From a virus (lineage: Duplodnaviria > Caudoviricetes): 64,000 nt of DNA. Location: the IMG/VR virus record IMGVR_UViG_3300035152_000033, positions 1 to 64,000 of that record; one strand, written 5' to 3'. The translations under genes and the position numbers were made by a program. Below are positions 23,300-49,494 of the stretch, one piece after another. Below the pieces are notes generated by a model that searched no databases, was not told the DNA's origin, and worked only from the letters and a program-made list of their open reading frames with translations. Numbering within the stretch: the first letter of the stretch is position 1; the number at the start of each line of letters is the position of its first letter.

Positions 23300-23415
23300 A
23301 ATAATGGAGCCAATAGATGAGGATATTGGCCCCTATAAGATAAATTAATTTAAAGGAGAATCACTTTTCCAATGACTCTTCACCTCATCACTTAAGTACT
23401 TTATTTTGAATCTGT
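23300..23415 (-). promoter_or_regulatory. Structured 5' leader with putative pseudoknot
   Basis: GATGAGG (23383-23389) complementary to loop CCTCATC of GGGGCCAATA/TATTGGCTCC hairpin. Confidence 0.5.
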
Positions 23416-23450
23416 GCCTAATTATATCCCTAAATGATACATATGTCAAG
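23405..23450 (-). promoter_or_regulatory. Class I promoter, partial palindrome copy
   Basis: CTTGACATATGT...17...TATAAT. Confidence 0.7.
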
Positions 23451-23784
23451 GCTTAAGTTTAAACCTTTCAGACAAAGGATCATACTCAGCACCAGAAGTA
23501 ATGCTCATAACAATAATCTTTTTATAAGACAAACCTTTTTTAACTAACCATTTAACATCAGGCCCATAAACATTACCATAAATACTCTCATTTTTAGGCT
23601 TAACTCTTTCCAACAAAGCAACAGATTTTATAGCCTGATATTTTTTACAGACTTTTCTTTTAGTTTTCCATAAAATAATAGCCATGTCTTTCTCACTAAA
23701 CTTAAAATCAAGTAACAACTTATACAAATCATCAATCTTTTCTATCTCAGCTTCCCTTTCTTCTACGGCCTTATTAATTTTCAA
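23446..23784 (-). CDS. Hypothetical protein
   Basis: ORF with GGAGGAG RBS. Confidence 0.55.
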   Translation of the reverse strand: MKINKAVEEREAEIEKIDDLYKLLLDFKFSEKDMAIILWKTKRKVCKKYQAIKSVALLERVKPKNESIYGNVYGPDVKWLVKKGLSYKKIIVMSITSGAEYDPLSERFKLKP

Positions 23785-23795
23785 AATAACTCCTC

Positions 23796-24926
23796 CTAAC
23801 TATTAAAAAAGCTTGCTACAGCTTCTTTACTTGTGAAATGGGCTGGCTTTTCTACTTCTCCTACCATTGGATTAAGCACATAACTTAATCTCAAATAAAC
23901 AATACCTAAAGATACTTTATCCCCAGACACTTTTACTTTTCCTTTATACTCCCACAATACATTTAACATATTAAAGATAAGTTTAGGAGTTAATTTCTCT
24001 GCCAACTCCATATAATTCTCATAACCTTTAACATTATTCTTAGCTAATAAAATATTTTTTAAAGTCTCCATAAAAGAATCTACAATCCTCACAACAGAAT
24101 TAGCCCGATCAAATACCTCCTCTAATAAAACCATACCCTCTGCCAACTTATTATTAATTAAACAATTAATAAGTTCAAAATAAAAAGATTTATCTATGAT
24201 TCCAAAGAAATCTTTAAACACCTGAGATGTTATATGATTAGAAATATATTGAAGTTGATCTAGACACATAACAGCGTCACGCATACCACCCTTAACATAA
24301 TTGGCTATAGCCTGAGCAGCATCCTTATCTAACTTAATCTTCTCAGCTTCCGCAATAAAAAAGAGCCTATCCATAATATCCTTAACAGAAATCCTCTTAT
24401 ATTCAAAAACTAATAATCTTGATTTAATAGTCTCAGGTACTTTATGGCTCTCAGTAGTAGCCATAATAAATATAGTATTGCTTGGTGGTTCTTCTAATAT
24501 CTTTAATAATGCCTGGAATCCCTGAATAGAACACCCATGCACTTCATCTATTACTATAACTCTATACTCTCCATTATGAGAAGTCATAGCCACATCTTTT
24601 AACTTTCTGATATCATCCACTAAACCATTAGAAGCGGCATCTATTTCCAAAACTGAGGTATCATTAGCCTTAGAAATAGCTAAACAAGAAGGACATTTCC
24701 CACAACTTTTAACACCTTTTCGATCAGAGCAATTTAAAACCCTTGCTATTATTCTTGCACTAGTAGTCTTTCCTATTCCTCGAGACCCACAGAACAATAA
24801 ACCTGCAGGTAAAGCAGCCCCCTTAAAATGTTTATCTAAAATAGCTTCCAAAATCTTAATAATATGTTCTTGACCAACCATATCAGATAAATTTAAAGGC
24901 CTATATTTTAATGCCAACTTTTCCAT
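23796..24926 (-). CDS. dnaX: DNA polymerase III gamma/tau (clamp loader), gamma-length
   Basis: LALKYRP...GQEH...GSRGIGKTT...CGKCPSC...EIDAASN...IIDEVH...LLKILEEPP...GGMRDA. Confidence 0.95.
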   Translation of the reverse strand: MEKLALKYRPLNLSDMVGQEHIIKILEAILDKHFKGAALPAGLLFCGSRGIGKTTSARIIARVLNCSDRKGVKSCGKCPSCLAISKANDTSVLEIDAASNGLVDDIRKLKDVAMTSHNGEYRVIVIDEVHGCSIQGFQALLKILEEPPSNTIFIMATTESHKVPETIKSRLLVFEYKRISVKDIMDRLFFIAEAEKIKLDKDAAQAIANYVKGGMRDAVMCLDQLQYISNHITSQVFKDFFGIIDKSFYFELINCLINNKLAEGMVLLEEVFDRANSVVRIVDSFMETLKNILLAKNNVKGYENYMELAEKLTPKLIFNMLNVLWEYKGKVKVSGDKVSLGIVYLRLSYVLNPMVGEVEKPAHFTSKEAVASFFNS

Positions 24927-24927
24927 A

Positions 24928-25146
24928 CTAAACCCCCTTAACTTTTTCTCCTACCCATAATAAATCCTCAGAAGATAACAACCTATTTTTAGTACCACCA
25001 CATATAGGACATAAATAAACTAAATGCATGGACCATTTAGAAACTTGCACATTATAATTAGTTGTCATTTCAACAGGTTCCTTATGAAATAAACCTGTTT
25101 TATTACAATGTGAGTCTAAATAATTACATAATACAACCTCTTCCAT
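24928..25146 (-). CDS. Small Cys/His protein
   Basis: CPICGG. Confidence 0.55.
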   Translation of the reverse strand: MEEVVLCNYLDSHCNKTGLFHKEPVEMTTNYNVQVSKWSMHLVYLCPICGGTKNRLLSSEDLLWVGEKVKGV

Positions 25147-25156
25147 AATAACCTCC

Positions 25157-25504
25157 TTACTTATCCATCATCTTTTTTAACACCCCAAACACTTGAAAAG
25201 CTTCCATATAAAAATTATCACTAACAGCAAACATTTTTTTAAGAGTCTCCTTTAATCGATCAGGATCATGATTAGCAATGGCTTCGCTCAACTCATCAAA
25301 ACCCTCAATAAAAAATCCCTGTTCTCTAAATAACTCGTCAATTTCAAATTTAAGTACACCAAAAAACTGGAACTCATCAACAAACTTATCATGTAAAGCT
25401 ATTCCCAATTGAGTCATTTCCTCAATCATATCATTTATTACTTTTAATCCTTCCTCAGACCACTGCACCTTTTCTATACTATCGTTATACTTAAAATATT
25501 TCAT
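25157..25504 (-). CDS. Hypothetical protein
   Basis: ORF with RBS. Confidence 0.55.
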   Translation of the reverse strand: MKYFKYNDSIEKVQWSEEGLKVINDMIEEMTQLGIALHDKFVDEFQFFGVLKFEIDELFREQGFFIEGFDELSEAIANHDPDRLKETLKKMFAVSDNFYMEAFQVFGVLKKMMDK

Positions 25505-25508
25505 AGCC

Positions 25509-25811
25509 TCATCTCCTATTTAATTTACTTAAAATTTCTTTCCTAGCTTCCTTATTTTCCATAGCTAACATATAATATTTTTTAAAATCTGTAGTGCCTC
25601 TTTTGAATTTAAAGGCTTTGGCCATATTAGCCTGCATCTCCTTATCTAATTTCAAAGATGCCTCATTCTCAAATGACACATGATAAAGTTTTTTACAATG
25701 GTCACACTGTATAAAACGCTCTGTCAAACCACCATTAATTTTTTTCTCTTCAAACCTATCAGCTTTAAAATCTTTTTTACACACATCACACACATACATT
25801 CCATTATCCAT
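25509..25811 (-). CDS. Zinc-ribbon protein
   Basis: CDVC...CDHC; start moved to MDNG after GGGAGG. Confidence 0.55.
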   Translation of the reverse strand: MDNGMYVCDVCKKDFKADRFEEKKINGGLTERFIQCDHCKKLYHVSFENEASLKLDKEMQANMAKAFKFKRGTTDFKKYYMLAMENKEARKEILSKLNRR

Positions 25812-25836
25812 ATATAAACTACCTCCCATCAAAAGT

Positions 25837-25868
25837 ATTATACCTATAAAATAGTAAAATTTAATGTT
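25837..25868 (-). promoter_or_regulatory. Class II promoter (ACA-N22-TATAAT)
   Basis: GTAACA ttaaattttactattttatagg TATAAT. Confidence 0.55.
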
Positions 25869-25898
25869 ACAAACAAAAAAAGAAGCAAAAAGCTCCTT

Positions 25899-28754
25899 TT
25901 ATTTTATTAACTTCCCCTTATCAGCACATCTAGGACAAAAATCAATACTTAAAGATTTATCTAAAAAGTTTACAGGAATAGTTTTCCCACACTCCACACA
26001 AGAAGGTCTAAAAAAATCAGCCTGTATATCCTTAAAAGAAACAAAACTATCAACTCTTAAAATATTATGCTTATAAGCCTCACCAAAAACCTTATTAAAT
26101 AAAGCATTATATACCTCAAAAGGAGAGGCCTTGCCTTTAACAAATAGTTTAAGTTTTACCTCTAATCCCTCTCTCACAGCCCATATATCACTAACAAAAT
26201 CCTTAGCATTACATTCAATAACATTAAGACCAGCCCTATAAATCATCTCTCTAATTTTCATAGTAACCTTTTCAGCTTTATGCCAATAATTAAGGGCATT
26301 AATAACAGACATTTCTGTTTTATCCGTATCTATTTGATATAAAGAGTATCCTTTTTGTTTCTTTAAACTTTCCATAGAAGATGGTACTTTAATACCATCT
26401 AAAAGCTCAATACCAAAATGAGTTAATTCTTTATTCATCTCACTTATTAAGACTCTTAAATCTTTCTCATTTTTAATATACTTTTCTAGCAAACCAAATT
26501 CTATATAATCAATACCATATAACCAATTCTTAAATTTAATATTATCAGATACAAACCTAATACTTCTTTTAGTAATAGGTATATCAGCCTTCCAAGCGGC
26601 TCGCCTAATTAAACATTTCCAGTAAACATTTTCTACACACTTATATTTTTTATGTATACAAACTTTTAATCTTACTTTTTCTCTTATAGTTGATTCATCC
26701 TTACGCTTTAAAGATGATAAATCTTTAAAACTAATATCTTTCTCTCTAGCCTTATAAGAATCCTGGACCTTTTTTGCTTCTACAGGACTACAAGCCCCAC
26801 AAGTACTACAACCATGTAGACACTTTTTAACAAGAAAACCATTTTTATTAGGCCCTCTATGATCTTCTCCTAACTCTGTATTAAGCATAAAATCACAAGA
26901 CTTTTTATACAACCCATAAATATAATCTTTAGTTACTCCTATATCAATATGATCCCAACCAAAAATATAATCCCAAGGTTTTTCTTTAAAATAATACTCA
27001 TAAGACACTCCATATTTCTGCAGGTTTTTTTCTAAAGTTTCTTTCATTCTACTATCCACAGCTCCTATATAAGCTGCGTCCAATTCATCATAAGAATCCA
27101 CCAGAGCATAACCCCCAAGCCTATCACATAAATGAGCTACTTGAGTACTCCACAAATAATCCTCTTTTGTTTTTTTCCCTAAAGTAAATTCTATACCTAA
27201 GTCTCTTATTTTTTGAAAGATACCAGCTAATCGCTTTTCTCCTACAGTAGCCCTATGCCATTGGAAAGGAGTCCAGGATTCAATTAATAAAGGTGTAAAA
27301 GAAACCCTCACACCTATAGAAGACCCCATAGAAGTCTTTAAATCCATAATTTTTTTACACAACTCTAAAAAATCTTCTATATCTTTATCGGACTCAAAAG
27401 GCAAGTTAGCAATCATATATAATTTTAACTTTTTATAACCGCCCCTAATTGTATTTTCACAAGCTTTTAAAATAACTTCCTCAGTGGCACCTTTATTGAC
27501 AAAAGTCCTTAATCTTTCTGAGCTTCCTTCTACTCCAACAGCCAACTGATTCATGCCACCCTCACCAGATATTAAAGAAAAATTAGCGTCCTCAGCCATA
27601 CTATCAATCCTCTGAGACTGAGAATCAAAGGTGTCAGACACTTCCTCTAGAATAGTCTTAGTTAATAAATTCTTTTGAGTATATCCCGTATACTCAAAAG
27701 CCGTTGGGAAAGCATAAATAGAACCAGAGTTTTTAATATTAGCCTTTAAAGCTTTGACCATATAAGGAATAGACCTTTCCCTATAAGGCCTATATCGATA
27801 CCCTACAGCACAAAAGGAACAGTTACCAGCATTACAACCCCTTGCTAATTCAACCTCACCTAAACCCATCTCAGGAAAAATCCAAGGTACTGGAGGGGCA
27901 TCCACACAAGGCACATTATTTAAATCCTTAACAAATCTTTTTTTAATCTTCTTAGGTATATCATCATATTTAGCCTCAAAACACTCTATTTTAAGCTCAT
28001 TATTCACCTTTTTATATTTAGGGTATAAAAACTTAGGCATATATAAGAAATCATATTCTTTAGCTAAAAAATGCAGTAATTCTTCACGTCCTTCTTTAGT
28101 ATAATAAAAACTCTCAGCTTCCTTTTTAAAAGAGTTAATATCTTCTAATACAGCCATTAAACCAGGAGACCCTTTTTCATCCTCAGCCTCTCCAATAAAC
28201 ATAAAGTCTACTATAGGACTCCAAATCTCAGGACTCCCAAAAGTCGAACCTCCTGAAATAATCAAAGGATAATTTTCTTTCATTTCTTCTCTGTCTTTCC
28301 ATCTTACGGGAATACCCGACATCTTTAACACTTTAACTACATTAGCTAAAAATGGGGGAAATCCTAAAGAAAACCCTACCACATCAAACTCACCCATAGG
28401 CTTCTTAGACTCCAAACCAAACATAGGAATCCCCTCAAAGTATCTTAATTCTTTATAACTAATAGGCATAAAAGACCTTTCAGCTTTAAAAGGTCTTATA
28501 CCATCCGATCTCCTATACTCATTAATCAATTTATATAATAAAGGTCCTCCTTGATTACCAACAAAATCTCTATAGCCCCAAGGATTTGCTATTAAAAATT
28601 TAAGCTCAGCAGAATCCCATTCTTTATAAAATAAACCTTTTCCCCATTCTCCATAAGTATTACACTCACAACCTAAAAAAGCCTCAGGCATTTCCATTTT
28701 AGGCATAATCGAAGTTAAAAAATTTTCTATTTGTATTTTCGTCATTTCCACCAT
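25899..28754 (-). CDS. B12-binding-type radical SAM (TIGR03960-like) fused to a DUF2344/TIGR03936-like domain and a C-terminal zinc ribbon
   Basis: AERSFMP...PMFGLESKKPMGEFDVVGFSL...IGEAE...ELARGCNAGNCSFC...YRERS...GVEGSSERLR..VNKG...KLYMIANLP...TPFQW...WDHIDIGV...CLHGCSTCGAC; then LIRRAAWKADIPI; CVEC...CPRC. Confidence 0.85.
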   Translation of the reverse strand: MVEMTKIQIENFLTSIMPKMEMPEAFLGCECNTYGEWGKGLFYKEWDSAELKFLIANPWGYRDFVGNQGGPLLYKLINEYRRSDGIRPFKAERSFMPISYKELRYFEGIPMFGLESKKPMGEFDVVGFSLGFPPFLANVVKVLKMSGIPVRWKDREEMKENYPLIISGGSTFGSPEIWSPIVDFMFIGEAEDEKGSPGLMAVLEDINSFKKEAESFYYTKEGREELLHFLAKEYDFLYMPKFLYPKYKKVNNELKIECFEAKYDDIPKKIKKRFVKDLNNVPCVDAPPVPWIFPEMGLGEVELARGCNAGNCSFCAVGYRYRPYRERSIPYMVKALKANIKNSGSIYAFPTAFEYTGYTQKNLLTKTILEEVSDTFDSQSQRIDSMAEDANFSLISGEGGMNQLAVGVEGSSERLRTFVNKGATEEVILKACENTIRGGYKKLKLYMIANLPFESDKDIEDFLELCKKIMDLKTSMGSSIGVRVSFTPLLIESWTPFQWHRATVGEKRLAGIFQKIRDLGIEFTLGKKTKEDYLWSTQVAHLCDRLGGYALVDSYDELDAAYIGAVDSRMKETLEKNLQKYGVSYEYYFKEKPWDYIFGWDHIDIGVTKDYIYGLYKKSCDFMLNTELGEDHRGPNKNGFLVKKCLHGCSTCGACSPVEAKKVQDSYKAREKDISFKDLSSLKRKDESTIREKVRLKVCIHKKYKCVENVYWKCLIRRAAWKADIPITKRSIRFVSDNIKFKNWLYGIDYIEFGLLEKYIKNEKDLRVLISEMNKELTHFGIELLDGIKVPSSMESLKKQKGYSLYQIDTDKTEMSVINALNYWHKAEKVTMKIREMIYRAGLNVIECNAKDFVSDIWAVREGLEVKLKLFVKGKASPFEVYNALFNKVFGEAYKHNILRVDSFVSFKDIQADFFRPSCVECGKTIPVNFLDKSLSIDFCPRCADKGKLIK

Positions 28755-28778
28755 AAATAATATAACCTCCTACAAAGT

Positions 28779-28890
28779 AAAAGCCCCTGATAAATAGATT
28801 GGCAATATCAGAGACTTTTTATTAAATTAATGAATACCACTTTCTTTATTGTACCGTAAATTTATTGTATCGTAAAATCAGTTAAAAATC
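28779..28890 (-). promoter_or_regulatory. Promoter(s) with 16-bp tandem repeat and attenuator-like leader of the radical SAM gene
   Basis: TTTACGATACAATAAA-TTTACGGTACAATAAA; hairpin AAAAGTCTCTGATA/TATCAGGGGCTTTT just before the RBS. Confidence 0.55.
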
Positions 28891-29268
28891 AATCTCATTT
28901 TTCCAACAAGGTAAAGCAGACACATGGGCATCCCATGCCACACCAAAACACACCTTTTCTTTTAAACATGTTACGGTATACTCAATCTTACCACTTAAGA
29001 TTGAATGTGCTTTACTAAAATCCTTAGCATAATCACAATACCAGCATTTAAACATTTTAGGATTTGCATCCGTATAACTTTTATTATTCATAGCAATCTT
29101 ATGAGCTTTATTTAGCTTAGAAGAATACTCTAAAATATCTTTCTTATTAATATCCTTAGAAGATTCAATATTAACTATCTTTCTCTTATCATAGAGCTTA
29201 CACCAATCAATATACTCTAATAATGTAAGCCCTCTTTCAATATCTTTTTCCTTTAATAAATTAATCAT
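28882..29268 (-). CDS. Hypothetical Cys-containing protein
   Basis: ORF; CWYC. Confidence 0.55.
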   Translation of the reverse strand: MINLLKEKDIERGLTLLEYIDWCKLYDKRKIVNIESSKDINKKDILEYSSKLNKAHKIAMNNKSYTDANPKMFKCWYCDYAKDFSKAHSILSGKIEYTVTCLKEKVCFGVAWDAHVSALPCWKNEIDF

Positions 29269-29657
29269 GATAAAACCTTCAATCTGGTATAATCATAATC
29301 TAAAAGATTACAAAACTCTTTCAATGAAGAATCTGACAGTCTATGAGTACCAGACTCCACCTTAGCATAAGTACTAAGAGACATACCTAAAGCTTTAGCA
29401 ATCTCTCTTTGTGTCCATCCTCGCCAAACTCTTACTTTACGTAAAGTACTAAAGCTCTTGTCGCTCACTGCACTTAACCTCTTATAAGGTTTATATACTT
29501 TTTTAGTCTTTCTTTTTTCATAAGCATCCGTAGCCCATTCTAAAAAAACGTCAACCACTTCATCCACACTTAAAGGGTTCTCCTCAGCCACCTTTTTTAA
29601 TTTTTCTAAAGTGGAATTTTTTATTAAAAATCTACAAGTACTACGCAAAACTTTCAC
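29265..29657 (-). CDS. XRE-family HTH regulator with possible N-terminal RHH-like segment
   Basis: LRKVRVWRGWTQREIAKALGMSLSTYAKVESG. Confidence 0.85.
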   Translation of the reverse strand: MKVLRSTCRFLIKNSTLEKLKKVAEENPLSVDEVVDVFLEWATDAYEKRKTKKVYKPYKRLSAVSDKSFSTLRKVRVWRGWTQREIAKALGMSLSTYAKVESGTHRLSDSSLKEFCNLLDYDYTRLKVLS

Positions 29658-29675
29658 TCCTTTCTATTATCCTAT

Positions 29676-29861
29676 TTAGGACATATAAATTTTTACTACT
29701 TTTATAGTCAGTCTATACATATAAAGCCAGATAAAGAAAATACCTAAAATCAACCAACGTCTACAGCTATAATCTCTCTCATATATAACATATATCATAT
29801 GAGACCCTGCTATTAAAAGAACCCACAAACTATAAAACATTCCAATTAAAGTCCAAACCAA
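29676..29861 (-). CDS. Small two-TM membrane protein
   Basis: Hydrophobic; start probably shortly downstream of the AGGAGG RBS (exact codon uncertain). Confidence 0.45.
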   Translation of the reverse strand: MVWTLIGMFYSLWVLLIAGSHMIYVIYERDYSCRRWLILGIFFIWLYMYRLTIKVVKIYMS

Positions 29862-29879
29862 ATATAAACACCTCCTAAA

Positions 29880-29911
29880 ATTATACCTACAAAAAACCAA
29901 AAAAGCATGTA
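29880..29911 (-). promoter_or_regulatory. Class II promoter
   Basis: GTACA tgcttttttggttttttgtagg TATAAT. Confidence 0.55.
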
Positions 29912-29981
29912 CACATAAAAATAAAATAAGCCCCTGAAAAAGGAGCTTACTTCTTAAAAGGCATAATATGTAGTAAATTAC

Positions 29982-30209
29982 TTATATTATATCAGCCTCA
30001 GAGATTACAATCAAATCTAAAATTTTAATTTTATTAAAAGACTTCAAACATAAATTATCATCATAGGCATTTAATAAATACTCAGCCTTTTCCTCTAACC
30101 CATTATAATTAATTATGGTCTCGATCTCTTTACTGGGTAACTGAACCGCAGTTACAATCATTTTTTTATTAGGTTTATTTAATTTCTTTTCATAAGAGTC
30201 TCTATTCAT
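29982..30209 (-). CDS. Hypothetical protein
   Basis: GGAGGAAGCTAAGAA-ATG start. Confidence 0.6.
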   Translation of the reverse strand: MNRDSYEKKLNKPNKKMIVTAVQLPSKEIETIINYNGLEEKAEYLLNAYDDNLCLKSFNKIKILDLIVISEADII

Positions 30210-30223
30210 TTCTTAGCTTCCTC

Positions 30224-31207: not shown

Positions 31208-31293
31208 AAATTAAAGCCCTTTAAAAAATAAAGAGCTTTAAACAAATATATTAAACTACACAGCAACAATAATAATAAATAACTTCTATATTG

Positions 31294-31626: not shown

Positions 31627-31636
31627 ACTTTCACCT

Positions 31637-33780: not shown

Positions 33781-33826
33781 TTTATCTTATGTTCTTATTA
33801 TATAATAAGACTTGACATATGTCAAG
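33781..33826 (-). repeat. 46-bp class I promoter repeat (perfect 16-bp palindrome)
   Basis: CTTGACATATGTCAAG-N8-TATAAT-N5-CATAAGATAAA. Confidence 0.9.
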
Positions 33827-41319: not shown

Positions 41320-41334
41320 ACAAAGAAATTATTC

Positions 41335-41724: not shown

Positions 41725-41761
41725 AAAGACCTCCTATAAAATAATATTCTTAGCTTCCTTA

Positions 41762-41886
41762 AACAAAGAAATAGCAGGATTTTTATCCCACTATTTCCCC
41801 CATTAACTACATTTACTACTCAAATATCGATATAATATTAAATAACATATTGTTAATATTTTAAGGTAACTAGCCTTAATAAAAAG
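41762..41886 (-). ncRNA. Candidate small RNA (~120 nt)
   Basis: Behind CTTGACATATGT promoter (41893-41916); no ORF; ends in GAAATAGTGGGAT/ATCCTGCTATTTC + TTTGTTT. Confidence 0.5.
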
Positions 41887-41927
41887 AGATTACCACAGTT
41901 AATTACATATGTCAAGGATATTTCTAT

Positions 41928-42326
41928 TTACTTTAGCCAAGCCTCCTGCAACCAAACATTTTGAAAAACACCATCTTTAAAACATACTGTCATCTCAAAA
42001 CCTTCCTCACCTTTTACATTAGGAGTTCCAGCTCTTAAAATAACATGGCATTCCTCAGCAATACTTTTATCAATCACATAACAAACTTCCCAACTCTCCA
42101 ATAACTGAACAAATCTATCTTTATCCTTAATAGCAGTCATAAATTTCTCTGTGCTATCAAGCATAAACTTTTCTATATACTCCCTATCAGTAGGATTAGG
42201 AAAACTACAATATTTAGTACAATAAGGAGCCATATTTTTAATATTTTCCTTATCCTTTTCACTTAATATGACCATAATAGGCTCCTCTTCACTATTATAA
42301 ATCTTATTACCTATCTTAACTTTCAT
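41928..42326 (-). CDS. Hypothetical protein
   Basis: MKVKIGNKIYNSEEEPIMVIL, a recurrent phage N-terminus. Confidence 0.6.
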   Translation of the reverse strand: MKVKIGNKIYNSEEEPIMVILSEKDKENIKNMAPYCTKYCSFPNPTDREYIEKFMLDSTEKFMTAIKDKDRFVQLLESWEVCYVIDKSIAEECHVILRAGTPNVKGEEGFEMTVCFKDGVFQNVWLQEAWLK

Positions 42327-42436
42327 TTCTTAGCCTCCTCTATTTGTCAATTATATTATATTTTTTATGTTGTCTTGTCTCCTCTTAATGAAAAAATCCC
42401 AGGGATTAGTAAAAACCTAGTCAGCAAAACACTACA

Positions 42437-42832
42437 TTATATACAAACCTCAACTTTTTTTAAATTTCCAGGAATACTTACAGTAAACCCACACAATAGA
42501 CAGTTAATATTAGTATACATAGATTTCTCATAAGGTACCTTAGAAGCCTCTACTTTAGAAGGTATGACCTCCTTTTTCTCTATAAAAAGCTTATGTCTAG
42601 TATTGCAATGAGGACATACAAAAGTCATATTACTATTAGACTCATCAATTCTAATTTCACCTGTTGTCAAAAATAATAAAAACTTACTTATAGAATAGCC
42701 AGTTACTTTCTCAAACTCTTCCACATCTCTTTTTAAACCTTCAACACTAAGCTCATCTATTAAGGCTTTTCTTTTACCCTCATCTTTTAAAGCCTCCTTA
42801 AAATCATTTAATAACTGTTCTTTTTCATTCAT
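42437..42832 (-). CDS. Hypothetical protein with zinc ribbon
   Basis: CPHC...CLLC. Confidence 0.6.
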   Translation of the reverse strand: MNEKEQLLNDFKEALKDEGKRKALIDELSVEGLKRDVEEFEKVTGYSISKFLLFLTTGEIRIDESNSNMTFVCPHCNTRHKLFIEKKEVIPSKVEASKVPYEKSMYTNINCLLCGFTVSIPGNLKKVEVCI

Positions 42833-43020
42833 AAATATATCCTCCTATAATACACTCATTTTTTGCCTTTTAAACACCTTTTTATTTTACCCTATTAATA
42901 TAACACCCTTTACCCTATTGATTAATTTAAACCATAATTTTGGGCTAAATTTCCCAATAACTACTGTGCTGCCTTAAAGCAAAATTAATGTTTCTTCATG
43001 GTATGTTCTTATAAAATAAT

Positions 43021-43248
43021 TTAATAATCATGCCTTACATATAATTCTTTGCACTCAGGACAAAACTCCATTATTATGGAAACACCTATACTTTTCTTAT
43101 ACTCTTCCCCAAGCATACTAACCCTTAAGTCCTTATATTTATTAGCGTATAAAAGCACTTGACATTTAGGGCATTCTTTCAACCAACAACTCTTAGACCT
43201 ATATACCTTGCCTCTCATAATAGCAGTAAACTTCCTCATACTACACAC
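43021..43248 (-). CDS. Zinc-ribbon protein
   Basis: CPKC...CPEC. Confidence 0.55.
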   Translation of the reverse strand: MCSMRKFTAIMRGKVYRSKSCWLKECPKCQVLLYANKYKDLRVSMLGEEYKKSIGVSIIMEFCPECKELYVRHDY

Positions 43249-43271
43249 GCCCTTTCTATCTTAACGTTTAA

Positions 43272-43481
43272 CTAAAGTAACCATTTAATCCTCTTTAAGT
43301 ATTTCCTATAGCACCATACTTTCAATTGCATACAGTTAATACAATAAATATATCCATCCCCTTTATTAATCTCATTACACTTAGCTATTAACCAATAGAC
43401 ATATAACCTTATTCGTATATACTTAAAGCGTCTTTTTATTTTTCTCTTACAATTATTTATTCTCATGCTCAATAGTCTCAA
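43272..43481 (-). CDS. Small basic Cys-containing protein
   Basis: ORF track; CINC. Confidence 0.45.
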   Translation of the reverse strand: MRLLSMRINNCKRKIKRRFKYIRIRLYVYWLIAKCNEINKGDGYIYCINCMQLKVWCYRKYLKRIKWLL

Positions 43482-43686
43482 AATATAAGTTATGTTCTTC
43501 CTGAAAAGATAACTTATTAAACAGCTCCTCAGTTACATATAACATAGAATCTCCTGCAGTGGTACCATTAACGTCCATCTTAACATATAATCTAAAGCTT
43601 GCAGGTAAAGCCTCTTTCTTATATATCCTAAATTTAATCTCTGACACAATAACACTCCTTTCTATCTTAGCATTTAAATTCATCAT
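43453..43686 (-). CDS. Hypothetical protein
   Basis: Overlapping operon-style ORF. Confidence 0.5.
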   Translation of the reverse strand: MMNLNAKIERSVIVSEIKFRIYKKEALPASFRLYVKMDVNGTTAGDSMLYVTEELFNKLSFQEEHNLYFETIEHENK

Positions 43687-44260
43687 CCAAGAGGGTCATG
43701 GCATAAGGAAAGCCCTCCCAGTTATCTACTCCTGCATCTTCTAAAGCAGTAAGTCTAGCCTCAGATTTTCTTAGCTCCTTAACTTCCTTTTCTAACCTCT
43801 CTATCCATTCCATATGAGTAAGTTTAGCATTCAATAACTCTTTATTATTAGCCCTTAATACCTTATTATCTGCTTTTGCTCTCTGATAACTTTCTATTAA
43901 ACCCTCATCTAAAACAGTTAAGCCTTTAAGCTCTAATACTATCTGAATAAACATGGCATCCTTTAATTTTTGGAATACATTTAACTCAGCAAAAGGAACC
44001 AAACAAGCATGTTCCTTTTTTTCTCGATCAGTGACAGGAGAATACTGCCAACCATCTTTTAATTTGGCCTCCATCCACACATCATGGACCTCATAAGCAG
44101 TAATTTTAGGATTATCTAAAACCTCTTCCACAGCACATAGAACTTGATTCTTTCTTTCCTCAGACAAATTATCATAAGTCTCAATACAAGACTCACTATT
44201 ACAAATACGTATAATCTGTAACAAATTAAAAGCTATCTTTGCTATATATTCTTTATCCAT
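43667..44260 (-). CDS. RyR-domain protein with coiled coil and GVDNWEG tail
   Basis: HDVWMEAKLKDGWQYSPVTDREKKEHACLVPFAEL...QKLKD. Confidence 0.8.
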   Translation of the reverse strand: MDKEYIAKIAFNLLQIIRICNSESCIETYDNLSEERKNQVLCAVEEVLDNPKITAYEVHDVWMEAKLKDGWQYSPVTDREKKEHACLVPFAELNVFQKLKDAMFIQIVLELKGLTVLDEGLIESYQRAKADNKVLRANNKELLNAKLTHMEWIERLEKEVKELRKSEARLTALEDAGVDNWEGFPYAMTLLDDEFKC

Positions 44261-44520
44261 TAATAAAATTTCCCCTTATACTTTATATTTTGTGTAGCGG
44301 TAATAATACTATTATCCTTCCCATAATTAATCTGACCTATATTATTTTTATGTTTAACTACCTCTTTTCCATCTTCCATAGTATCATTGATATTATCTAT
44401 TATTTCATTTACTAAGATAATCTCAGATTTTAACTCTGTAATTTCCAGAGCCTTATTTACAGTCTTTAACATACTTATAATTTCTCTCTTAAGTCCATCT
44501 CTCTTAGCCATTTTTAGCAC
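44260..44520 (-). CDS. Hypothetical protein
   Basis: ORF. Confidence 0.5.
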   Translation of the reverse strand: MLKMAKRDGLKREIISMLKTVNKALEITELKSEIILVNEIIDNINDTMEDGKEVVKHKNNIGQINYGKDNSIITATQNIKYKGKFY

Positions 44521-44525
44521 TCCTT

Positions 44526-44687
44526 TTATTTAATTTTTCTATCACAAAGAGGACAATAATAACTTCCCTCTTTTAATACCATACAACTATTATGGATATT
44601 TGCCCCACAATCACAGATTCCAAAGACAGTCTCATGCAATAGACCACTACAAGCATTACATATTAAAAATCCATCTTTATCAAACAT
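44526..44687 (-). CDS. PHD/RINGv-like C4HC3 microprotein (53 aa)
   Basis: ICNAC...ICDCGANIHNSC...YYCPLC; read manually. Confidence 0.6.
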   Translation of the reverse strand: MFDKDGFLICNACSGLLHETVFGICDCGANIHNSCMVLKEGSYYCPLCDRKIK

Positions 44688-44722
44688 ATCCACATTAAAA
44701 GCTCCTTTTTATCTTTATTCAT

Positions 44723-44866
44723 TTAATCATCCCTTTCCATAACATCCCTTGTATAATCCTCAAACTCTGCCTCATCTGAAATATACGTCTGGCATACAGG
44801 ACACCAACCGCTACCGTCATCAATAATAAAGTCACAATAAGGACACTCTTCACTAAAAAAATCCAT
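44723..44866 (-). CDS. Zinc-ribbon microprotein (47 aa)
   Basis: CPYC...WCPVC; GGAGGTG RBS; read manually. Confidence 0.6.
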   Translation of the reverse strand: MDFFSEECPYCDFIIDDGSGWCPVCQTYISDEAEFEDYTRDVMERDD

Positions 44867-44880
44867 GCTTAAACACCTCC

Positions 44881-45252
44881 TTAAAATATAAGATGAGGAC
44901 AACTAAAAGCCGCCTCTACTTCAATTAATATAATAAAATCACCTGACTGTATACCAGGTAAAATCTCATTAATTTTTTTAACCGTAACCTCAGCGGCAAT
45001 ACTTACCATATCACTACAAGAAGTATTATAATAACCCTCTGAGTAATACTTACCGCTTCTTTTAAAGTAAGTTAGTTTTACTCTATACATTTCCTTTTTC
45101 TCCCCTTTACAGCAAGGACAACACATATACTTGTGAATAGTCTCACAATAACAAGTCAAGTCCCCGCATTTTTCACAGCCACCAGAAAAACATCTGTTAT
45201 CAGATAAAGAAATTTCCTTGGGAATGCTTAATATTTTAGAGCAATCAGCCAT
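44881..45252 (-). CDS. Cys-rich hypothetical protein
   Basis: Start moved to MADC after AGGAGG; VKLTYFKRSGKYYSEG C-terminal part. Confidence 0.6.
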   Translation of the reverse strand: MADCSKILSIPKEISLSDNRCFSGGCEKCGDLTCYCETIHKYMCCPCCKGEKKEMYRVKLTYFKRSGKYYSEGYYNTSCSDMVSIAAEVTVKKINEILPGIQSGDFIILIEVEAAFSCPHLIF

Positions 45253-45267
45253 AAACACCTCCTTAAT

Positions 45268-45299
45268 ATTATACCTACCATTAAACAAAAAAGCATGTA
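45268..45299 (-). promoter_or_regulatory. Class II promoter
   Basis: GTACA tgcttttttgtttaatggtagg TATAAT. Confidence 0.55.
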
Positions 45300-45329
45300 C
45301 AATTTAAAAATTATACATGCCCTAATTCT

Positions 45330-45641
45330 TTAAATCAAACCTGACCAATTATTATAAGTTCTACCATTATCATTGGCAAATAATATATAACAGTTTAACT
45401 CATTATCCCATATAAATTTAGAATTAAAGTAACCCTGCCCAGTCTTTAAAGTGCCAGTTATACATTTAAAGTCTGGTATCTTTTTAGTTACCTTATATCT
45501 AGCCTCTAGATAATCCACCAGATCATAAACATCATCTAAAAAGATACCTCTAGATAAATTTTGAATCCTCTTATCATCAGCAAAAAACTTTCTCTCAACT
45601 CTATTCTTACACACCATTACTTTTAGTTCTTTCATTCCCAT
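45330..45641 (-). CDS. Hypothetical protein
   Basis: First gene behind class I promoter. Confidence 0.6.
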   Translation of the reverse strand: MGMKELKVMVCKNRVERKFFADDKRIQNLSRGIFLDDVYDLVDYLEARYKVTKKIPDFKCITGTLKTGQGYFNSKFIWDNELNCYILFANDNGRTYNNWSGLI

Positions 45642-45655
45642 TCCCTCCTAAAAAT

Positions 45656-45701
45656 TTTATCTTATGATTTAATTATACACCTATCCTTGACATATGTCAA
45701 G
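45656..45701 (-). repeat. 46-bp class I promoter repeat (perfect palindrome; contains upstream gene stop)
   Basis: Same layout; the TGA of TTGACA is the stop of 45697..46515. Confidence 0.9.
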
Positions 45702-46515
45702 CATTAAGGTTATATTTCTCCACCAATTCTAAAAGCCTGGTATCTAACTTAGCCTTATTTTTTTCCCCACTATAAATAACTAAATAATAGTTTGTTTCAT
45801 CTACACTATTACTAGTGTTATAGCTATCCCAATAATGCTCTTTTATAAGAACAGCATAAGTATTACTTAATGTAAAATTAGGCTTGCATTCTTCTTCCTC
45901 AGGAGTTTCAGTGTCTCCATTATTTGAGTACTCATAATAATATTCAAATCCACAATGAAGATCATCACCATATAATATAGTATCCTCCTGTAATTTCCCT
46001 TCTTCTCCTGCCCATGAATGCTTTCTCGTATAATCAATAAGAGTCATTCTTTTAGCAAATTCCTTATAATCAGTTGTGAATTCTACTTCTACATCCATAA
46101 TAGACAAATCTATATTATCCACTATAGAATGTATAAAATTTTCATCTTCTATCTTAGAGGCTCTGATAATTTTCTCTGTCAATCTGGCTTTCTTTTCTGT
46201 CTCCGTTAAAGCCAGATAATTATTATATTCCTCTTCTTTCTCAGACACATAATCTCTCCATCTATGAGAGACATAGATATAGTCTTTATCCACAGAATCA
46301 ATATAATATCTGTGAACTTCATCCTCAGATATATAAACATTTCTACCTCTGACAAGAGGCATGACAAACTCAGGCTTATAAATCTTGATAAACTCAGATT
46401 TATGATCTCTAAATGTATCAGAGACAAACTCCAATACATTTTCAAAAATAGCATTTACTTCTATAACATCAAGACCAGTTAACTGGCCTATAATTTCTTT
46501 TTGTAAAATCTTCAT
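45697..46515 (-). CDS. Hypothetical acidic protein
   Basis: ORF with GGAGGAG RBS. Confidence 0.65.
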   Translation of the reverse strand: MKILQKEIIGQLTGLDVIEVNAIFENVLEFVSDTFRDHKSEFIKIYKPEFVMPLVRGRNVYISEDEVHRYYIDSVDKDYIYVSHRWRDYVSEKEEEYNNYLALTETEKKARLTEKIIRASKIEDENFIHSIVDNIDLSIMDVEVEFTTDYKEFAKRMTLIDYTRKHSWAGEEGKLQEDTILYGDDLHCGFEYYYEYSNNGDTETPEEEECKPNFTLSNTYAVLIKEHYWDSYNTSNSVDETNYYLVIYSGEKNKAKLDTRLLELVEKYNLNA

Positions 46516-46544
46516 AATATTCTTCTCCTCCTATAAAATTTAAT

Positions 46545-47096
46545 TTAAAAGCACTCCACTACAAAATGTAAATGGTTTTCCTCATAAAAGGCCCATATAT
46601 TACATATAGATTCTTTAGAATACACCAACATATAAGCACCATACCCACCCTCTATAGGACGAGACAAGTAAATTCGTTCTGTATGTGTCTGTTGAAAAAT
46701 TTCATATAATTCTTGATGGATAACATAAATTTTACTATGTTCGGGTTTCGTAGATGGAATTTTACTAGTTTGCAAATCTTTCAGCAAATCCTTTAATTGA
46801 TAAAGGGTCGAAAATGTTCCACCTAAAACCTTACTATTTCTTTTGGCCTCTTCTCTCTGCATTTCAAAAGACACTCTATTATTATTAAAATAAATCACAT
46901 CTGCCTCAGTAATATGCAACTCTCTAGCTATATCCTCAACCTGTTTACCTCTGGCTTTATAAATTCTAGCTAGAGAAGCCTTAGAAGCTTTAAATTTAAT
47001 TAATTCTTTAATCATAGCCATTTCAGCTCTATTATGAAGACCTTCCAATCTTCCTAACTCTTCTAACTCATCTAACAAATCTTTATAATTTTTCAT
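46545..47096 (-). CDS. Hypothetical protein with possible HTH
   Basis: GKQVEDIARELHIT. Confidence 0.6.
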   Translation of the reverse strand: MKNYKDLLDELEELGRLEGLHNRAEMAMIKELIKFKASKASLARIYKARGKQVEDIARELHITEADVIYFNNNRVSFEMQREEAKRNSKVLGGTFSTLYQLKDLLKDLQTSKIPSTKPEHSKIYVIHQELYEIFQQTHTERIYLSRPIEGGYGAYMLVYSKESICNIWAFYEENHLHFVVECF

Positions 47097-47117
47097 ATAA
47101 ATCTCTCCTTTAAAATT

Positions 47118-47163
47118 TTTATCTTATGATTATATATTAGCATTTTCCTTTACATATGTCAAG
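47118..47163 (-). repeat. 46-bp class I promoter repeat
   Basis: CTTGACATATGTAAAG...TAATAT...CATAAGATAAA. Confidence 0.9.
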
Positions 47164-47218
47164 CTTTTATTTAAAAAAATAAGAGGGTATATTTAATACC
47201 CTCTCAGCTTCCTTAATA

Positions 47219-47437
47219 CTATTTTACCCAATTTACTACATGAATAATTAAGTTATATTCATACTCACCTAAAGGCTCTTTTAACTTAAGTTTTTGATAA
47301 CTTATAATATTTGCCATAGGTACCGTTAAATTATCTATAGTTATTCCTGTAGAATTAATAATACACTCCGCTCCTTCACCTATAAAAGGCTTACCTTCAT
47401 GGTATAATGCTACCTGAGCTTTAAATTTATCAAACAT
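47219..47437 (-). CDS. Hypothetical protein
   Basis: ORF followed by terminator GAGAGGGTAT/ATACCCTCTT. Confidence 0.55.
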   Translation of the reverse strand: MFDKFKAQVALYHEGKPFIGEGAECIINSTGITIDNLTVPMANIISYQKLKLKEPLGEYEYNLIIHVVNWVK

Positions 47438-47453
47438 TTAATCATCCTTTCTA

Positions 47454-47600
47454 TTATAAAACATATTCCTCATAAAAATCCTCAATGGAATAAGTCTCCC
47501 AGGAATCCCCATTATTAACCTCAACACAATCCCCATGACAAACAAAATTACCAGGGTCCACCTTACAAAAAGTCTCTACCATATCCAACATACTACTCAT
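47454..47600 (-). CDS. Hypothetical microprotein (48 aa)
   Basis: AGGAGG RBS; read manually. Confidence 0.5.
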   Translation of the reverse strand: MSSMLDMVETFCKVDPGNFVCHGDCVEVNNGDSWETYSIEDFYEEYVL

Positions 47601-47613
47601 AATATTCCTCCTA

Positions 47614-48231
47614 TTAATTATGTTCTGCTTTTAATATACCGATTCTCACCGCTTCATCCACAGGCAATATATCAGCCAATAAGGCTATATTCTCTTGAAT
47701 TTTATCTCTTTTAGCTAAAACAGAAGTATCTGCTTTTTGCCAATCCTCCCATTTAGAAACACCACAAGCAAACTTTATTTGTTTAGCTACTTCCGCTATA
47801 TATTTACCAAAAGCTTTCTTATTACTAAACTTAGCATACAAGGCACCCGACATTTTAGTATAACTATCTCCACTTTCATTCCTATATCTTAGCAAATAAT
47901 CATATAACCAAGAATAAGTTTCAATTTTTAACTTAGGGCTTATAGCCAAAGCCAAATCTATAAATAAATAAGGATGGACCCAAGTATGTTTACCTCTACC
48001 TCTACCAGCTATTTTTACTTTACATTTAAACTTATTCTCTAACTCTGCCATAAAATCTATGGTACCTTTTTGCCTAAACCACTCAGATAAACTAAAAGGA
48101 GCCAATCCATTATACAACCGCCATTGATTACCTGCCTTTGTCAAATCAGTCGCAGACAAAAACTCACTTTTAGATTTTTGAGCTATTTCCATGTTAAATA
48201 ATTTACGTTTCATAATAACCTCTGTTTTCAT
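47614..48231 (-). CDS. KilA-N domain DNA-binding protein
   Basis: FLSATDL...WFRQKGT..F...GRGKHTWVHPYLFIDLALAISPK. Confidence 0.9.
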   Translation of the reverse strand: MKTEVIMKRKLFNMEIAQKSKSEFLSATDLTKAGNQWRLYNGLAPFSLSEWFRQKGTIDFMAELENKFKCKVKIAGRGRGKHTWVHPYLFIDLALAISPKLKIETYSWLYDYLLRYRNESGDSYTKMSGALYAKFSNKKAFGKYIAEVAKQIKFACGVSKWEDWQKADTSVLAKRDKIQENIALLADILPVDEAVRIGILKAEHN

Positions 48232-48264
48232 AAAAACCTCCTATAAAATATGTGTTTTCAGAGA

Positions 48265-48325
48265 TATTATAATACAACTTTTATAAAAGTTAAATAGTTT
48301 TTCCCTAAATAATACAACTTTTTTT
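48265..48325 (-). promoter_or_regulatory. KilA-N promoter with direct-repeat operator
   Basis: AAAAGTTGTATTA twice, 40 bp apart; TTTAAC-17-TATAAT. Confidence 0.55.
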
Positions 48326-48360
48326 AAAGCCTTAAATCCCATATTTATTAAACTCCTCCA

Positions 48361-48504
48361 AATAAAATAAGCTTCATTTATTATCCTAGTGTGCAGCTCG
48401 AACAATAAATAAAGCTTTTATTTTATTAAAGACTAAAAACTGGCTGCACTTCATTTTTTAATCTTCAATAATGAAATACTAACACAAACCAATCTACAAG
48501 TCAA
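48361..48504 (-). promoter_or_regulatory. Promoter plus pseudoknot/attenuator leader
   Basis: TTGACT-17-TAGTAT; GTGCAGC (48443-48449) complementary to GCTGCAC in the loop of hairpin 48361-48427. Confidence 0.6.
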
Positions 48505-48508
48505 CCTC

Positions 48509-48652
48509 TTAATCTTTTTCCTTCATCAACTCATTTGCACATTCAGCACAAACATTTAAAACCTGACCCGTTTTTTTATGCGTCATTTCAATTAAAAAAT
48601 AATGTACAGTCTTACCGCATTTCTCACATTTAGCAGTAAACACAGGCCTCAT
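48509..48652 (-). CDS. Zinc-ribbon microprotein (47 aa)
   Basis: CEKC...CAEC; read manually. Confidence 0.55.
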   Translation of the reverse strand: MRPVFTAKCEKCGKTVHYFLIEMTHKKTGQVLNVCAECANELMKEKD

Positions 48653-48666
48653 TATACCACTCCTTT

Positions 48667-48822
48667 CTACCATTTTTCATGCTTACCATCAATCATCCAG
48701 CCATACTTACAACGATTGCAGTAACACTTTTTAACCTTTACGGTACCACCCTTAACATATTGAGTCGTTTCATCTACCTTATCAGACTTGCCACACTGCG
48801 GACATACTTCTTTAACAACCAT
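48667..48822 (-). CDS. Zinc-ribbon microprotein (51 aa)
   Basis: CPQCG...CNRC; GAGGAGG RBS; read manually. Confidence 0.6.
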   Translation of the reverse strand: MVVKEVCPQCGKSDKVDETTQYVKGGTVKVKKCYCNRCKYGWMIDGKHEKW

Positions 48823-48839
48823 ATCAATCCCTCCTCATA

Positions 48840-49175
48840 CTATATATTAGGAGCATTAGTCCTAAGGACATAACATTCAGGAGCAGGCTCCCAGGCAAAA
48901 AACATATTATCGGCATTAATTAACCTATCAATAAATACCTGATAATAGCCTAAATGTAAACAAACATTATAGCCACCAGCTTTGACCGCACTATCCATAG
49001 TATCAGCCAATAGGTCATATTTTTCTAATAAATCTTTTTTAGGTCCAGTTAACTTAAAGTCAAAAGGAGCAAAAGATACCCAAACTACCTTTGATTCCTC
49101 AGCAACATTACACATTACTTTTGCTGGCTTAATAGAAATCAAAGATTTACTTCTATCTAATAATGTAAATCTCAT
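48840..49175 (-). CDS. Hypothetical protein
   Basis: AAGGAGG RBS following the kissing hairpins. Confidence 0.6.
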   Translation of the reverse strand: MRFTLLDRSKSLISIKPAKVMCNVAEESKVVWVSFAPFDFKLTGPKKDLLEKYDLLADTMDSAVKAGGYNVCLHLGYYQVFIDRLINADNMFFAWEPAPECYVLRTNAPNI

Positions 49176-49194
49176 CTCATTCCTCCTTAGAATA

Positions 49195-49316
49195 AATAAA
49201 GCCTCTTATTTTATGTTCAAAGTCAGAGTAACATAAAACAAAAGACTATTTTTTCATCATGTATTATTATATTTAAGGTTTTAAACTTGACTCTGACAAC
49301 AACTTTAAAACCTTAA
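49195..49316 (-). promoter_or_regulatory. Two hairpins with complementary loops (kissing loop)
   Basis: Loops GTCAGAGT (49290-49297) and ACTCTGAC (49222-49229). Confidence 0.6.
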
Positions 49317-49324
49317 CTACTTTA

Positions 49325-49455
49325 AATAAAATAAGCCTTCTCCTTGCCTATAGTTGTGATAGGACACGCATTTGTCGAAGCAGAAAACTTACAGGCCGCA
49401 GGTGATTTCACACAAGCTAGATTACTAAAATCTCTTCGATAACTTCATCCTGAAA
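49325..49455 (-). ncRNA. GC-richer structured RNA / attenuator leader
   Basis: TTGACA-18-TATATT promoter; alternative pairings TCGAAG/CTTCGA versus terminator-like TAAGTTTTCT/AGAAGGCTTA + TTTT. Confidence 0.5.
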
Positions 49456-49494
49456 ACAATATATCACAAAATGGCACGCCATGTCAAGCATAAA

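Follow-up and report, generated by a model that had tools for sequence, protein, structure and literature searches.

Contacts between RNA loops are already known to control transcription termination, both from antisense RNAs and from the tertiary folds of riboswitches. The c4 antisense RNA of phages P1 and P7 (immI) controls icd-ant, and c4 and the CI RNA of phage P4 are processed, stable, trans-acting molecules whose targets either overlap the ribosome-binding site (RBS), as with c4, or lie at a distance, as with seqA and seqC of P4. In the countertranscript-driven attenuators of pT181, pIP501 and pAMbeta1, as the available parts of two accounts describe them, an antisense RNA from the opposite strand acts on a leader that switches between an antiterminator and a terminator (PMC3753616, PMC4878617). 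The present work concerns the first 64 kb (64,000 nucleotides (nt), hereafter the window) of G000, a viral contig of 79,979 nt (IMG/VR record IMGVR_UViG_3300035152_000033), in which two neighbouring leaders at 48.4 and 49.2 kb each carry a hairpin whose loop is complementary to that of the terminator-like hairpin just downstream. To judge from their sequence, and with middling confidence, these are two copies of one RNA module in early-gene 5' leaders, which would act as a self-specific attenuator and stabiliser that sets the levels of genes of the KilA-N/Bro-N type. As in the pT181-type attenuators, so far as the available parts of those accounts go, kissing at the loop of a leader hairpin is here predicted to be coupled to an intrinsic terminator just ahead of the RBS; unlike in them, both loops lie in the sense RNA, and an alternative fold was not found. 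The promoter-like sites listed, which leave aside 63 weaker ones, include none on the plus strand at 48.3-49.3 kb.

The two modules, designated C3 (48.4 kb) and C4 (49.2 kb), follow a common plan in which hairpin A, with a stem of 13-17 bp, is joined by a short A-rich spacer to a long-stemmed hairpin B that has an oversized loop and runs directly into a U tract; an exact complement to 7-8 bases of loop A lies in loop B. Both fall within the definition adopted for a kissing-hairpin leader, in which the coding strand carries, in order, hairpin A, a spacer of 2-30 nt, a large-loop hairpin B, a U tract, a Shine-Dalgarno site and the start codon. The definition also asks for a loop-loop Watson-Crick run of at least 6 bases with G or C among them, preserved through compensatory change; the run is 7 nt in C3 and 8 nt in C4, and compensatory change is seen only between L023 and L133, C3 being without an orthologue. 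Because the words differ among modules, each module would recognise itself only.

C3 lies behind a predicted sigma-70-like promoter (48476-48504, minus strand, like all features below unless marked otherwise), which consists of TTGACT, 17 nt and TAGTAT and is assigned by consensus only. Its hairpin A (48423-48471) begins 0-3 nt past the predicted transcription start and has a 17-bp stem and a 15-nt loop, ATGAAGTGCAGCCAG, that presents the kissing word GTGCAGC (48449-48443). Beyond a spacer of 5 nt stands the terminator-like hairpin B (48361-48427), whose core stem (48417-48369, 18 bp, -18.1 kcal/mol) is lengthened by A-tract/U-tract pairs, whose loop GAGCTGCACACTA contains GCTGCAC (48397-48391), and whose tail is ATTTTATTT. 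The fold of the whole module has a z score of -4.20, and none of 200 shuffles is equally stable. A Shine-Dalgarno site, GGAGGAG (48359-48353), and a predicted open reading frame (ORF) of 33 codons, read from the sequence (ATG at 48342, stop TAG at 48243-48241), occupy 48241-48359; the stop of this mini-ORF overlaps the Shine-Dalgarno site of a gene for a KilA-N domain protein of 205 amino acids (aa) at 47614-48231 (Pfam KilA-N, E 7e-10). A leader homologous to that of C3 was not found at 22 loci of KilA-N homologues. Within the mini-ORF there is also a promoter-like TTAACT-16-TATAAT (48293-48266).

C4 lies downstream of a promoter-like site at 49458-49487 (TTGACA, 18 nt and TATATT, with TG), which would drive a leader of ~270 nt. 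Its hairpin A (49273-49316) has a 13-bp stem and an 18-nt loop, GTTGTTGTCAGAGTCAAG, with the kissing word GTCAGAGT at 49297-49290, and a spacer of 25 nt leads to the terminator-like hairpin B (49200-49247), which has an 18-bp stem including G-U pairs (-17.0 kcal/mol), a 12-nt loop, ACTCTGACTTTG, containing ACTCTGAC at 49229-49222, and the tail TTATTTATT. The module fold has a z score of -4.74, and again 0 of 200 shuffles are equally stable. Behind C4, at 48840-49199, come the U tract, the Shine-Dalgarno site AAGGAGG (49188-49182) and a gene for a protein of 111 aa (49175-48840), for which a Pfam or PHROG family was not found.

Most short loop-complementary words that are picked by eye in AT-rich leaders are the product of chance, and one explanation of the two sites is that their complementarity is likewise accidental, each site being a 5' hairpin followed by an ordinary leaky terminator. 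When the intergenic regions of G000 were screened, the 23 hairpins with loops of at least 7 nt formed just two adjacent pairs, both of which have complementary runs (8 and 7 nt); in 5000 shuffles of the loops, both pairs arose in none and one pair in 21. When the gene calls were ignored, the minus strand had 31 adjacent pairs, of which 2 qualified, and the plus strand had 3, of which none did. The per-hairpin shuffle p values for the 48.4 and 49.2 kb sites are 0.002 and 0.0025, and the background, taken from 95 unrelated phage loci, is 3 pairs with a run of at least 7 nt among 309. In the 79,979 nt, GTCAGAGT, ACTCTGAC and GTGCAGC occur once each and GCTGCAC twice. Naive word counts, made with no base-content weighting, show no excess over complement, reverse and direct controls, because AT-rich words and nested stems dominate them. 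An accidental origin agrees with the chance level of three of the five pairs originally reported, with the AT-only matches of 6-8 nt that arise in the descriptor search described below, and with the post hoc choice of thresholds; it is nonetheless very improbable, and already disfavoured, in view of the failure of all 5000 shuffles to give both pairs, the uniqueness of the words in 80 kb (GCTGCAC, with its second copy, apart), the independent third pair in the swapped module of a relative, the excess of descriptor hits (5 against a null mean of 0.32 in 1.36 Mb) and the compensatory G:C to C:G changes between two homologous modules, L023 and L133.

An earlier note on this DNA had described five minus-strand instances of a word complementary to the loop of a downstream hairpin, with different sequences and one topology. 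All ten words were found at the positions claimed, and each pair was tested by folding against dinucleotide shuffles, by shuffling of hairpin loops and by comparison with two relatives, G001 and G002. The recurrent architecture and the shared topology hold for two of the five sites, those at 48.4 and 49.2 kb, which lie above chance and beat the shuffles; at the other three they do not, the 23.3-kb pair being borderline against shuffles and those at 28.8 and 49.4 kb failing. Four of the sites (23.3, 28.8, 48.4 and 49.2 kb) do stand directly before an RBS, as had been said. The proposal of a pseudoknot or kissing loop can be narrowed to kissing at 48.4 and 49.2 kb, because there the upstream word is itself the loop of a strong hairpin; it does not extend to the three other sites, where no upstream hairpin presents the word, so that they fall outside the definition of a kissing leader.

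At 23.3 kb (23306-23389) the word GATGAGG (23389-23383) is single-stranded, a hairpin intervenes at 23379-23357, and CCTCATC (23322-23316) belongs to a hairpin at 23333-23306, GGGGCCAATA[TCCTCATC]TATTGGCTCC, that is solid (-13.8 kcal/mol). GATGAGG has 22 sense-strand copies in the genome against 7.4 expected, the per-hairpin shuffle p is 0.027 with 23 hairpins tested, and the leader fold has a z score of -2.0; both words are invariant in G001 and G002, so covariation cannot show. We lean towards chance for this pair. At 28.8 kb (28779-28839) a terminator-like hairpin with a 13-nt loop (28819-28779) is real, one U-G pair having become C-G in relatives, and the contact between TGGTA (28839-28835) and TGCCA (28804-28800) amounts to 5 bp including a G-U, with no Watson-Crick run of 5 and a z score of -1.4; the loop pairing was rejected because the corresponding words in G002, AGATA and TACCA, retain 3 of 5 pairs. 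Upstream of this hairpin, at ~28874-28843, stands a tandem duplication, TTTACGATACAATAAA / TTTACGGTACAATAAA, that is a single copy in G002. The pair at 49.4 kb (49375-49439), TCGAAG (49439-49434) with CTTCGA (49380-49375), lies with C4 in the ~270-nt leader that the site at 49487-49458 would drive; it was judged to be chance and rejected, being 6 nt long with both words in predicted stems, in a region with a z score of -0.22 where 70 of 200 shuffles fold equally well. Its words are unchanged in G002, and the comparison is therefore uninformative.

The sense strand of the modules folds better than the antisense strand by 8-20 kcal/mol in 7 of 7 modules tested, an advantage that is due to G-U pairs, of which each module has 3-7 (35 of 278 pairs overall). 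This strand specificity bears on a reading in which the words act in DNA, as an inverted repeat for a dimeric protein (as operator half-sites or in looping), the hairpins being incidental. A word and its reverse complement 52-68 bp apart do form an inverted repeat beside promoters, but the spacing is not in constant helical phase (52 bp in C3, 68 bp in C4), the words always lie within hairpin loops, the stems need the G-U pairs that are present in sense-strand RNA only, and the words differ in every module, so that there is no common protein site; we regard an operator function as exceedingly improbable. When the two words were forced into a nested helix in seven kissing modules, the cost was 15-26 kcal/mol relative to the two-hairpin fold, which leaves a loop-loop contact or pairing between molecules as the only ways in which the complementarity can act (on kissing loops in general, see the available part of PMC4872101). 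The duplexes of the words have energies of -6.7 to -11.4 kcal/mol.

G000 has ~31% G+C, a strongly negative GC skew and virtually every gene on the minus strand, and the viral collection holds two close relatives of it. G001 is a 61-kb fragment of ~99% identity that stops short of the 48-49 kb region; G002 is a complete genome of 88,665 nt with terminal repeats, 85-97% identical to G000 in the regions compared. With the clamp loader, the radical SAM protein and the 111-aa protein as queries, the viral collection gave nothing beyond these two, a metagenome scan for relatives of the window gave the G002 record alone, a scan of genome contigs with KilA-N gave one short, unrelated contig, and GenBank phages gave zero DNA matches to the window and only distant protein matches. 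Over 117 nt, C4 differs in G002 by three events: there the outermost pair of hairpin A has a substitution, the spacer has a deletion of 2 nt, and loop B has one base substituted outside the word. The 16 kissing positions are untouched. At C3, the similarity between G000 and G002 ends just past the -35 box of the promoter, and a cassette has been exchanged (window 48499-47614 against L029 ~1500-597 of G002, minus strand): where G000 has the C3 leader, the mini-ORF and the KilA-N gene, G002 has another kissing leader and a 250-aa Bro-N gene. The G002 leader comprises a hairpin A with the loop AATCCGACC, a hairpin B whose loop contains GGTCGGA, a U-rich tail, AGGAGG and ATG; its loop pair, TCCGACC / GGTCGGA, is 7 bp long, and its fold has a z score of -5.73, with 0 of 200 shuffles equally stable.

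The same design recurs in six more modules in unrelated phage contigs, found by a screen of KilA-N/Bro-N loci in G003/L011 (and L126), G004/L012, G005/L014, L022 and L023. All of these lie on the coding strand and all are followed by a U tract, with the start codon 16-27 nt past the stem except in L022; in G003, G004, G005 and L022, loop B consists of the kissing word and a small hairpin with a four-base cap (GCAA, GAAA, TTCG and TAGC). The genomes G003, G004 and G005 have a single GC-containing module in the early region, beside KilA-N, methylase and replication-initiator genes. A descriptor search of 1.36 Mb returned 67 candidate pairs, of which 5 have runs of at least 7 nt, against a shuffle null with a mean of 0.32 and a maximum of 3 in 300. 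A wider descriptor run gave 15 of 231 against a null mean of 2.57, a figure in which alternative stems of one module are counted repeatedly and AT-only hits, regarded as chance, are included; the hits with G or C in the word are all on the coding strand, ahead of a U tract and a start codon. A module was not found in G007, the closest KilA-N relative, and L127, L132 and L134 do not have the module of their relatives; a stem-anchored pattern of the G003-type module matches L011 and L126 alone, and a local BLAST of the L023 module against the loci collected by then gave nothing. The modules are too dissimilar in sequence to be aligned with MAFFT.

The covariation that the earlier note had named as a check is not seen in the window modules, for which there is one informative relative, and appears as a compensatory change elsewhere. 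The modules of L023 and L133 are homologous, with the same TGGTATAAT promoter and the same tail GGTTTTTTATTGGAGTTTA, in front of proteins that are just 31% identical. Their words are GGACGAG/CTCGTCC in L023 and CGACCAGA/TCTGGTCG in L133, so that, of the seven loop-loop pairs, five are the same and two have become C:G in place of G:C, with both partners changed. Between L011 and L126 there are two one-sided stem changes, with pairing kept.

The evidence on termination concerns the second hairpin. A stable stem followed by a U-rich tract, the pattern of an intrinsic terminator, is present in hairpin B of C3 and C4 and in all other modules; hairpin B ends 9-14 nt before the Shine-Dalgarno site. 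A scan of the genome with a loop limit of 3-8 nt gave terminator-like sites in excess, 22 and 15 where 5.5 and 5.7 were expected, and the C3 and C4 hairpins are missing from these lists because their loops exceed that limit (module hairpin B loops are 12-20 nt). The ordinary small-loop terminators of the genome have no partner of this kind, and what had been called phage-wide control contracts to an element restricted to two neighbouring early leaders at 48.4-49.3 kb. The recurrent leader architecture is real and local to early genes, and it may be tied to termination. On the reading that we prefer, loop A would be folded and free as the loop B word exits the polymerase, a tertiary kissing helix would form ahead of the synthesis of the 3' arm of hairpin B, and this docking would lock the 5' hairpin onto the terminator hairpin. 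The docked pair would then set the share of transcripts that end at hairpin B as a compact RNA of ~100-120 nt with both ends buried in helices, and the remaining transcripts would read into the gene with the 5' end of the messenger RNA (mRNA) protected. In predicted folds of transcripts that stop just behind the loop B word, 7 of 9 modules keep hairpin A with its loop free. In 7 of 9 modules, moreover, nothing in these shortened transcripts competes for the 5' arm of hairpin B, and a classical antiterminator switch is therefore unsupported; the term attenuator, which the earlier note had used, stays putative.

If termination efficiency is unaffected by the contact, the modules could instead be a pure stability device or a small structural RNA, in which a loop-clamped 5' hairpin and a 3' terminator hairpin block 5' and 3' exonucleases. 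In bacteria, 5'-terminal hairpins are established stabilisers of mRNA. Hairpin A lies within ~3 nt of the expected start in C3, G002, L023 and L133 (the promoters being predicted by consensus only), which suits such a device, as does the lack of an antiterminator alternative. Ordinary small-loop hairpins, however, would protect equally well, which leaves the selected loop pairing unexplained, and hairpin A of C4 is internal to the transcript; protection as the whole of the function is distinctly unlikely.

The main rival reading is that the loops pair between molecules, the short terminated RNA kissing nascent or full-length copies of the leader or forming a head-to-tail dimer, by which the phage would sense the concentration of its early transcripts and shut off or time the gene. 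This is the logic of P1 c4, of P4 CI and of the plasmid copy-control RNAs, and the KilA-N and Bro-N types, to which the downstream genes belong, are the gene class under c4 and sar RNA control. The self-specific words differ among modules, as expected of regulators that avoid cross-talk, and loop A is nearly consumed by the pairing, with 0-2 spare bases in G002, G003, G004, G005, L022 and L023 and spacers of 5-12 nt, so that a coaxial kissing complex in cis should be hard to build and a symmetric dimer easy. Against this, the words have no further exact target in the genome, the partners are 50-70 nt apart in one RNA, where concentration strongly favours intramolecular pairing, and the modules with a mini-hairpin in loop B could probably fold back as a three-way junction within one molecule. 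We consider pairing between molecules unlikely as the main mode of action.

The comparison with described RNAs, in which the likenesses to c4/CI, the packaging RNA (pRNA), the repZ pseudoknot, the cobalamin riboswitches and the pistol ribozyme are leads rather than tests, touches both modes of pairing. With P1 c4 and P4 CI the modules share complementary short elements on the same strand within one leader, specificity lodged in words that differ between related phages, a position upstream of antirepressor-type genes and a predicted outcome linked to termination. They differ from those RNAs in that the word pairs with the loop of the neighbouring terminator hairpin and in that an immunity region is not recognised in the phage of the window; c4 differs further in that its target overlaps the RBS, from which the loop B words lie apart, 34-41 nt upstream of the Shine-Dalgarno sites. 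The likeness suggested in the earlier note is reasonable as a possible way of working, short of membership of that group. In the ColE1 system, two different transcripts, RNA I and RNA II, kiss with the aid of Rop and control primer formation; the full-length pairing of its ~7-nt loops resembles that in L023 (7 of 7 bases), and a search of G000 for a Rop homologue (PF01815) gave no match at E up to 1. The pRNA of the phi29 family likewise has two mutually complementary loops in one RNA, with words that covary among related phages as the sequence drifts, but its pairing is intermolecular and assembles a ring on the packaging motor of small protein-primed phages; the present modules differ from it in having no Rfam match, in genome type and in their position in early leaders ahead of a start codon.

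In the repZ/repA activator pseudoknots of IncI-alpha and IncB plasmids and in kissing-loop riboswitches such as cobalamin L5-L13, as here, a hairpin loop pairs with a distant element near the RBS and sets expression, and the overlap of the C3 mini-ORF stop with the next Shine-Dalgarno site recalls the coupling of repY to repZ. In those systems the partner overlaps or adjoins the RBS and an antisense RNA or a ligand competes for it; here, by contrast, the partner is a terminator loop, and there is neither a conserved aptamer sequence nor an Rfam match. A likeness to the pistol ribozyme, of topology only, is seen in G003, G004, G005 and L022, where the contact is between a hairpin loop and the internal loop of the helix that follows, this helix also bearing a small capped hairpin; unlike in pistol, the outer helix has 18-19 bp and is followed by a U tract, the conserved pistol bases were not seen, and there is no Rfam pistol match at E up to 1 or 10. 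More generally, the earlier statement that the element belongs to no named RNA family is borne out: Rfam 15 at gathering score gives 0 matches over the whole window, its matches at 48150-49700 are only miRNA, snoRNA and leader noise (E 1.2-5.7), and for the modules in L011, L012, L014 and L022 it gives nothing at E up to 1. Elsewhere in L011, at 2792-2845 on the plus strand, the type-P1 twister ribozyme matches weakly (23.2 bits, E 0.89, gathering score 67.2).

Several points weigh against the reading of the modules as self-specific attenuators and stabilisers. The thresholds of the intergenic screen were picked after the sequences had been seen, which weakens the formal p values although not the argument from uniqueness. 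Neither the forced folds nor the shortened transcripts revealed an antiterminator alternative, and nothing points to regulated rather than fixed termination. L023 uses both of its 7-nt loops wholly, with ~5 nt linking stems of 17-19 bp, so that an intramolecular contact seems to be under strain there and an intermolecular one is favoured. Hairpin A of C4 lies ~135 nt inside the transcript and not at its 5' end. The sole compensatory evidence comes from two sequences outside the window, whose own modules have one informative relative, with the kissing words unchanged in it. A second, stem-extending descriptor missed the G000 modules, because the extension of the stem consumed the U tract. Finally, the loci were fetched by way of KilA-N and Bro-N genes, and the link of the modules to these genes is therefore partly one of ascertainment.

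A number of other features of the window do not belong to the modules. The phage appears to have a promoter class of its own, marked by nine exact minus-strand copies of CTTGACATATGT (at 23450, 33826, 35019, 35768, 38120, 41916, 45701, 47163 and 53224). This word is a palindromic -35 region, with 17 matches on both strands at no more than one mismatch against 0.29 expected, and its copies are followed by TATAAT and, in seven cases, by the leader word ATAAGATAAA, which has 8 matches against 1.4 expected and lies as a leader motif at 33790, 34983, 35732, 45665, 47127, 53188 and 56532 on the minus strand. The only inverted copy of that leader word, TTTATCTTAT at 23335-23344 on the plus strand, stands in the minus-strand leader of the 23.3-kb site, just upstream of its hairpin, and that RNA would therefore share 10 nt of complementarity with the leaders of seven further early transcripts; as a single AT-rich 10-mer, this could be chance. 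A second promoter-like class, AGGTATAAT, is without a -35 box and has 6 copies against 2.3 expected, all on the minus strand (25845, 29888, 40089, 41296, 45276 and 61649), several of them just past a terminator that contains GTACATGCTTTTTT. The radical SAM protein, of 951 aa (25899-28754, minus strand; Radical_SAM_N2 E 2e-24, Radical_SAM E 8e-13), is without a PHROG match, and its relatives are distant (25-33% identity), in uncultured gut phage records and Microcystis phage MaAM05. Two minus-strand stretches, 12235-12878 and 19840-20195 (644 and 356 nt), have no gene in the crude ORF calling and yet are coding-like; an overlooked start, an unusual start codon or a frameshift may be the reason.

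Neither Rfam nor what the literature search returned, in partial texts, namely antisense-RNA kissing attenuators of the pT181 type and RnaG-icsA, includes a terminator that kisses another hairpin of the leader to which it belongs, with a word that changes from copy to copy. The modules are classed as a variant of known loop-loop RNA control with a putative function. It is possible, though doubtful, that they represent a widespread and undescribed class of phage regulatory RNA, a self-addressed switch in which a promoter-proximal hairpin and an intrinsic terminator are joined by a covarying, module-specific kissing helix of 7-8 bp. If that were so, each early operon would gauge and restrain its own expression, through pairing in cis or between transcript copies, and the loop word would be a private address that is exchangeable with the gene as a cassette, as in the swap between G000 and G002. 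If the modules are functional, they would give phages a compact, protein-free means to set the levels of their early genes, would explain why leader and gene move together as exchangeable cassettes, and would offer naturally orthogonal parts for the design of RNA circuits.

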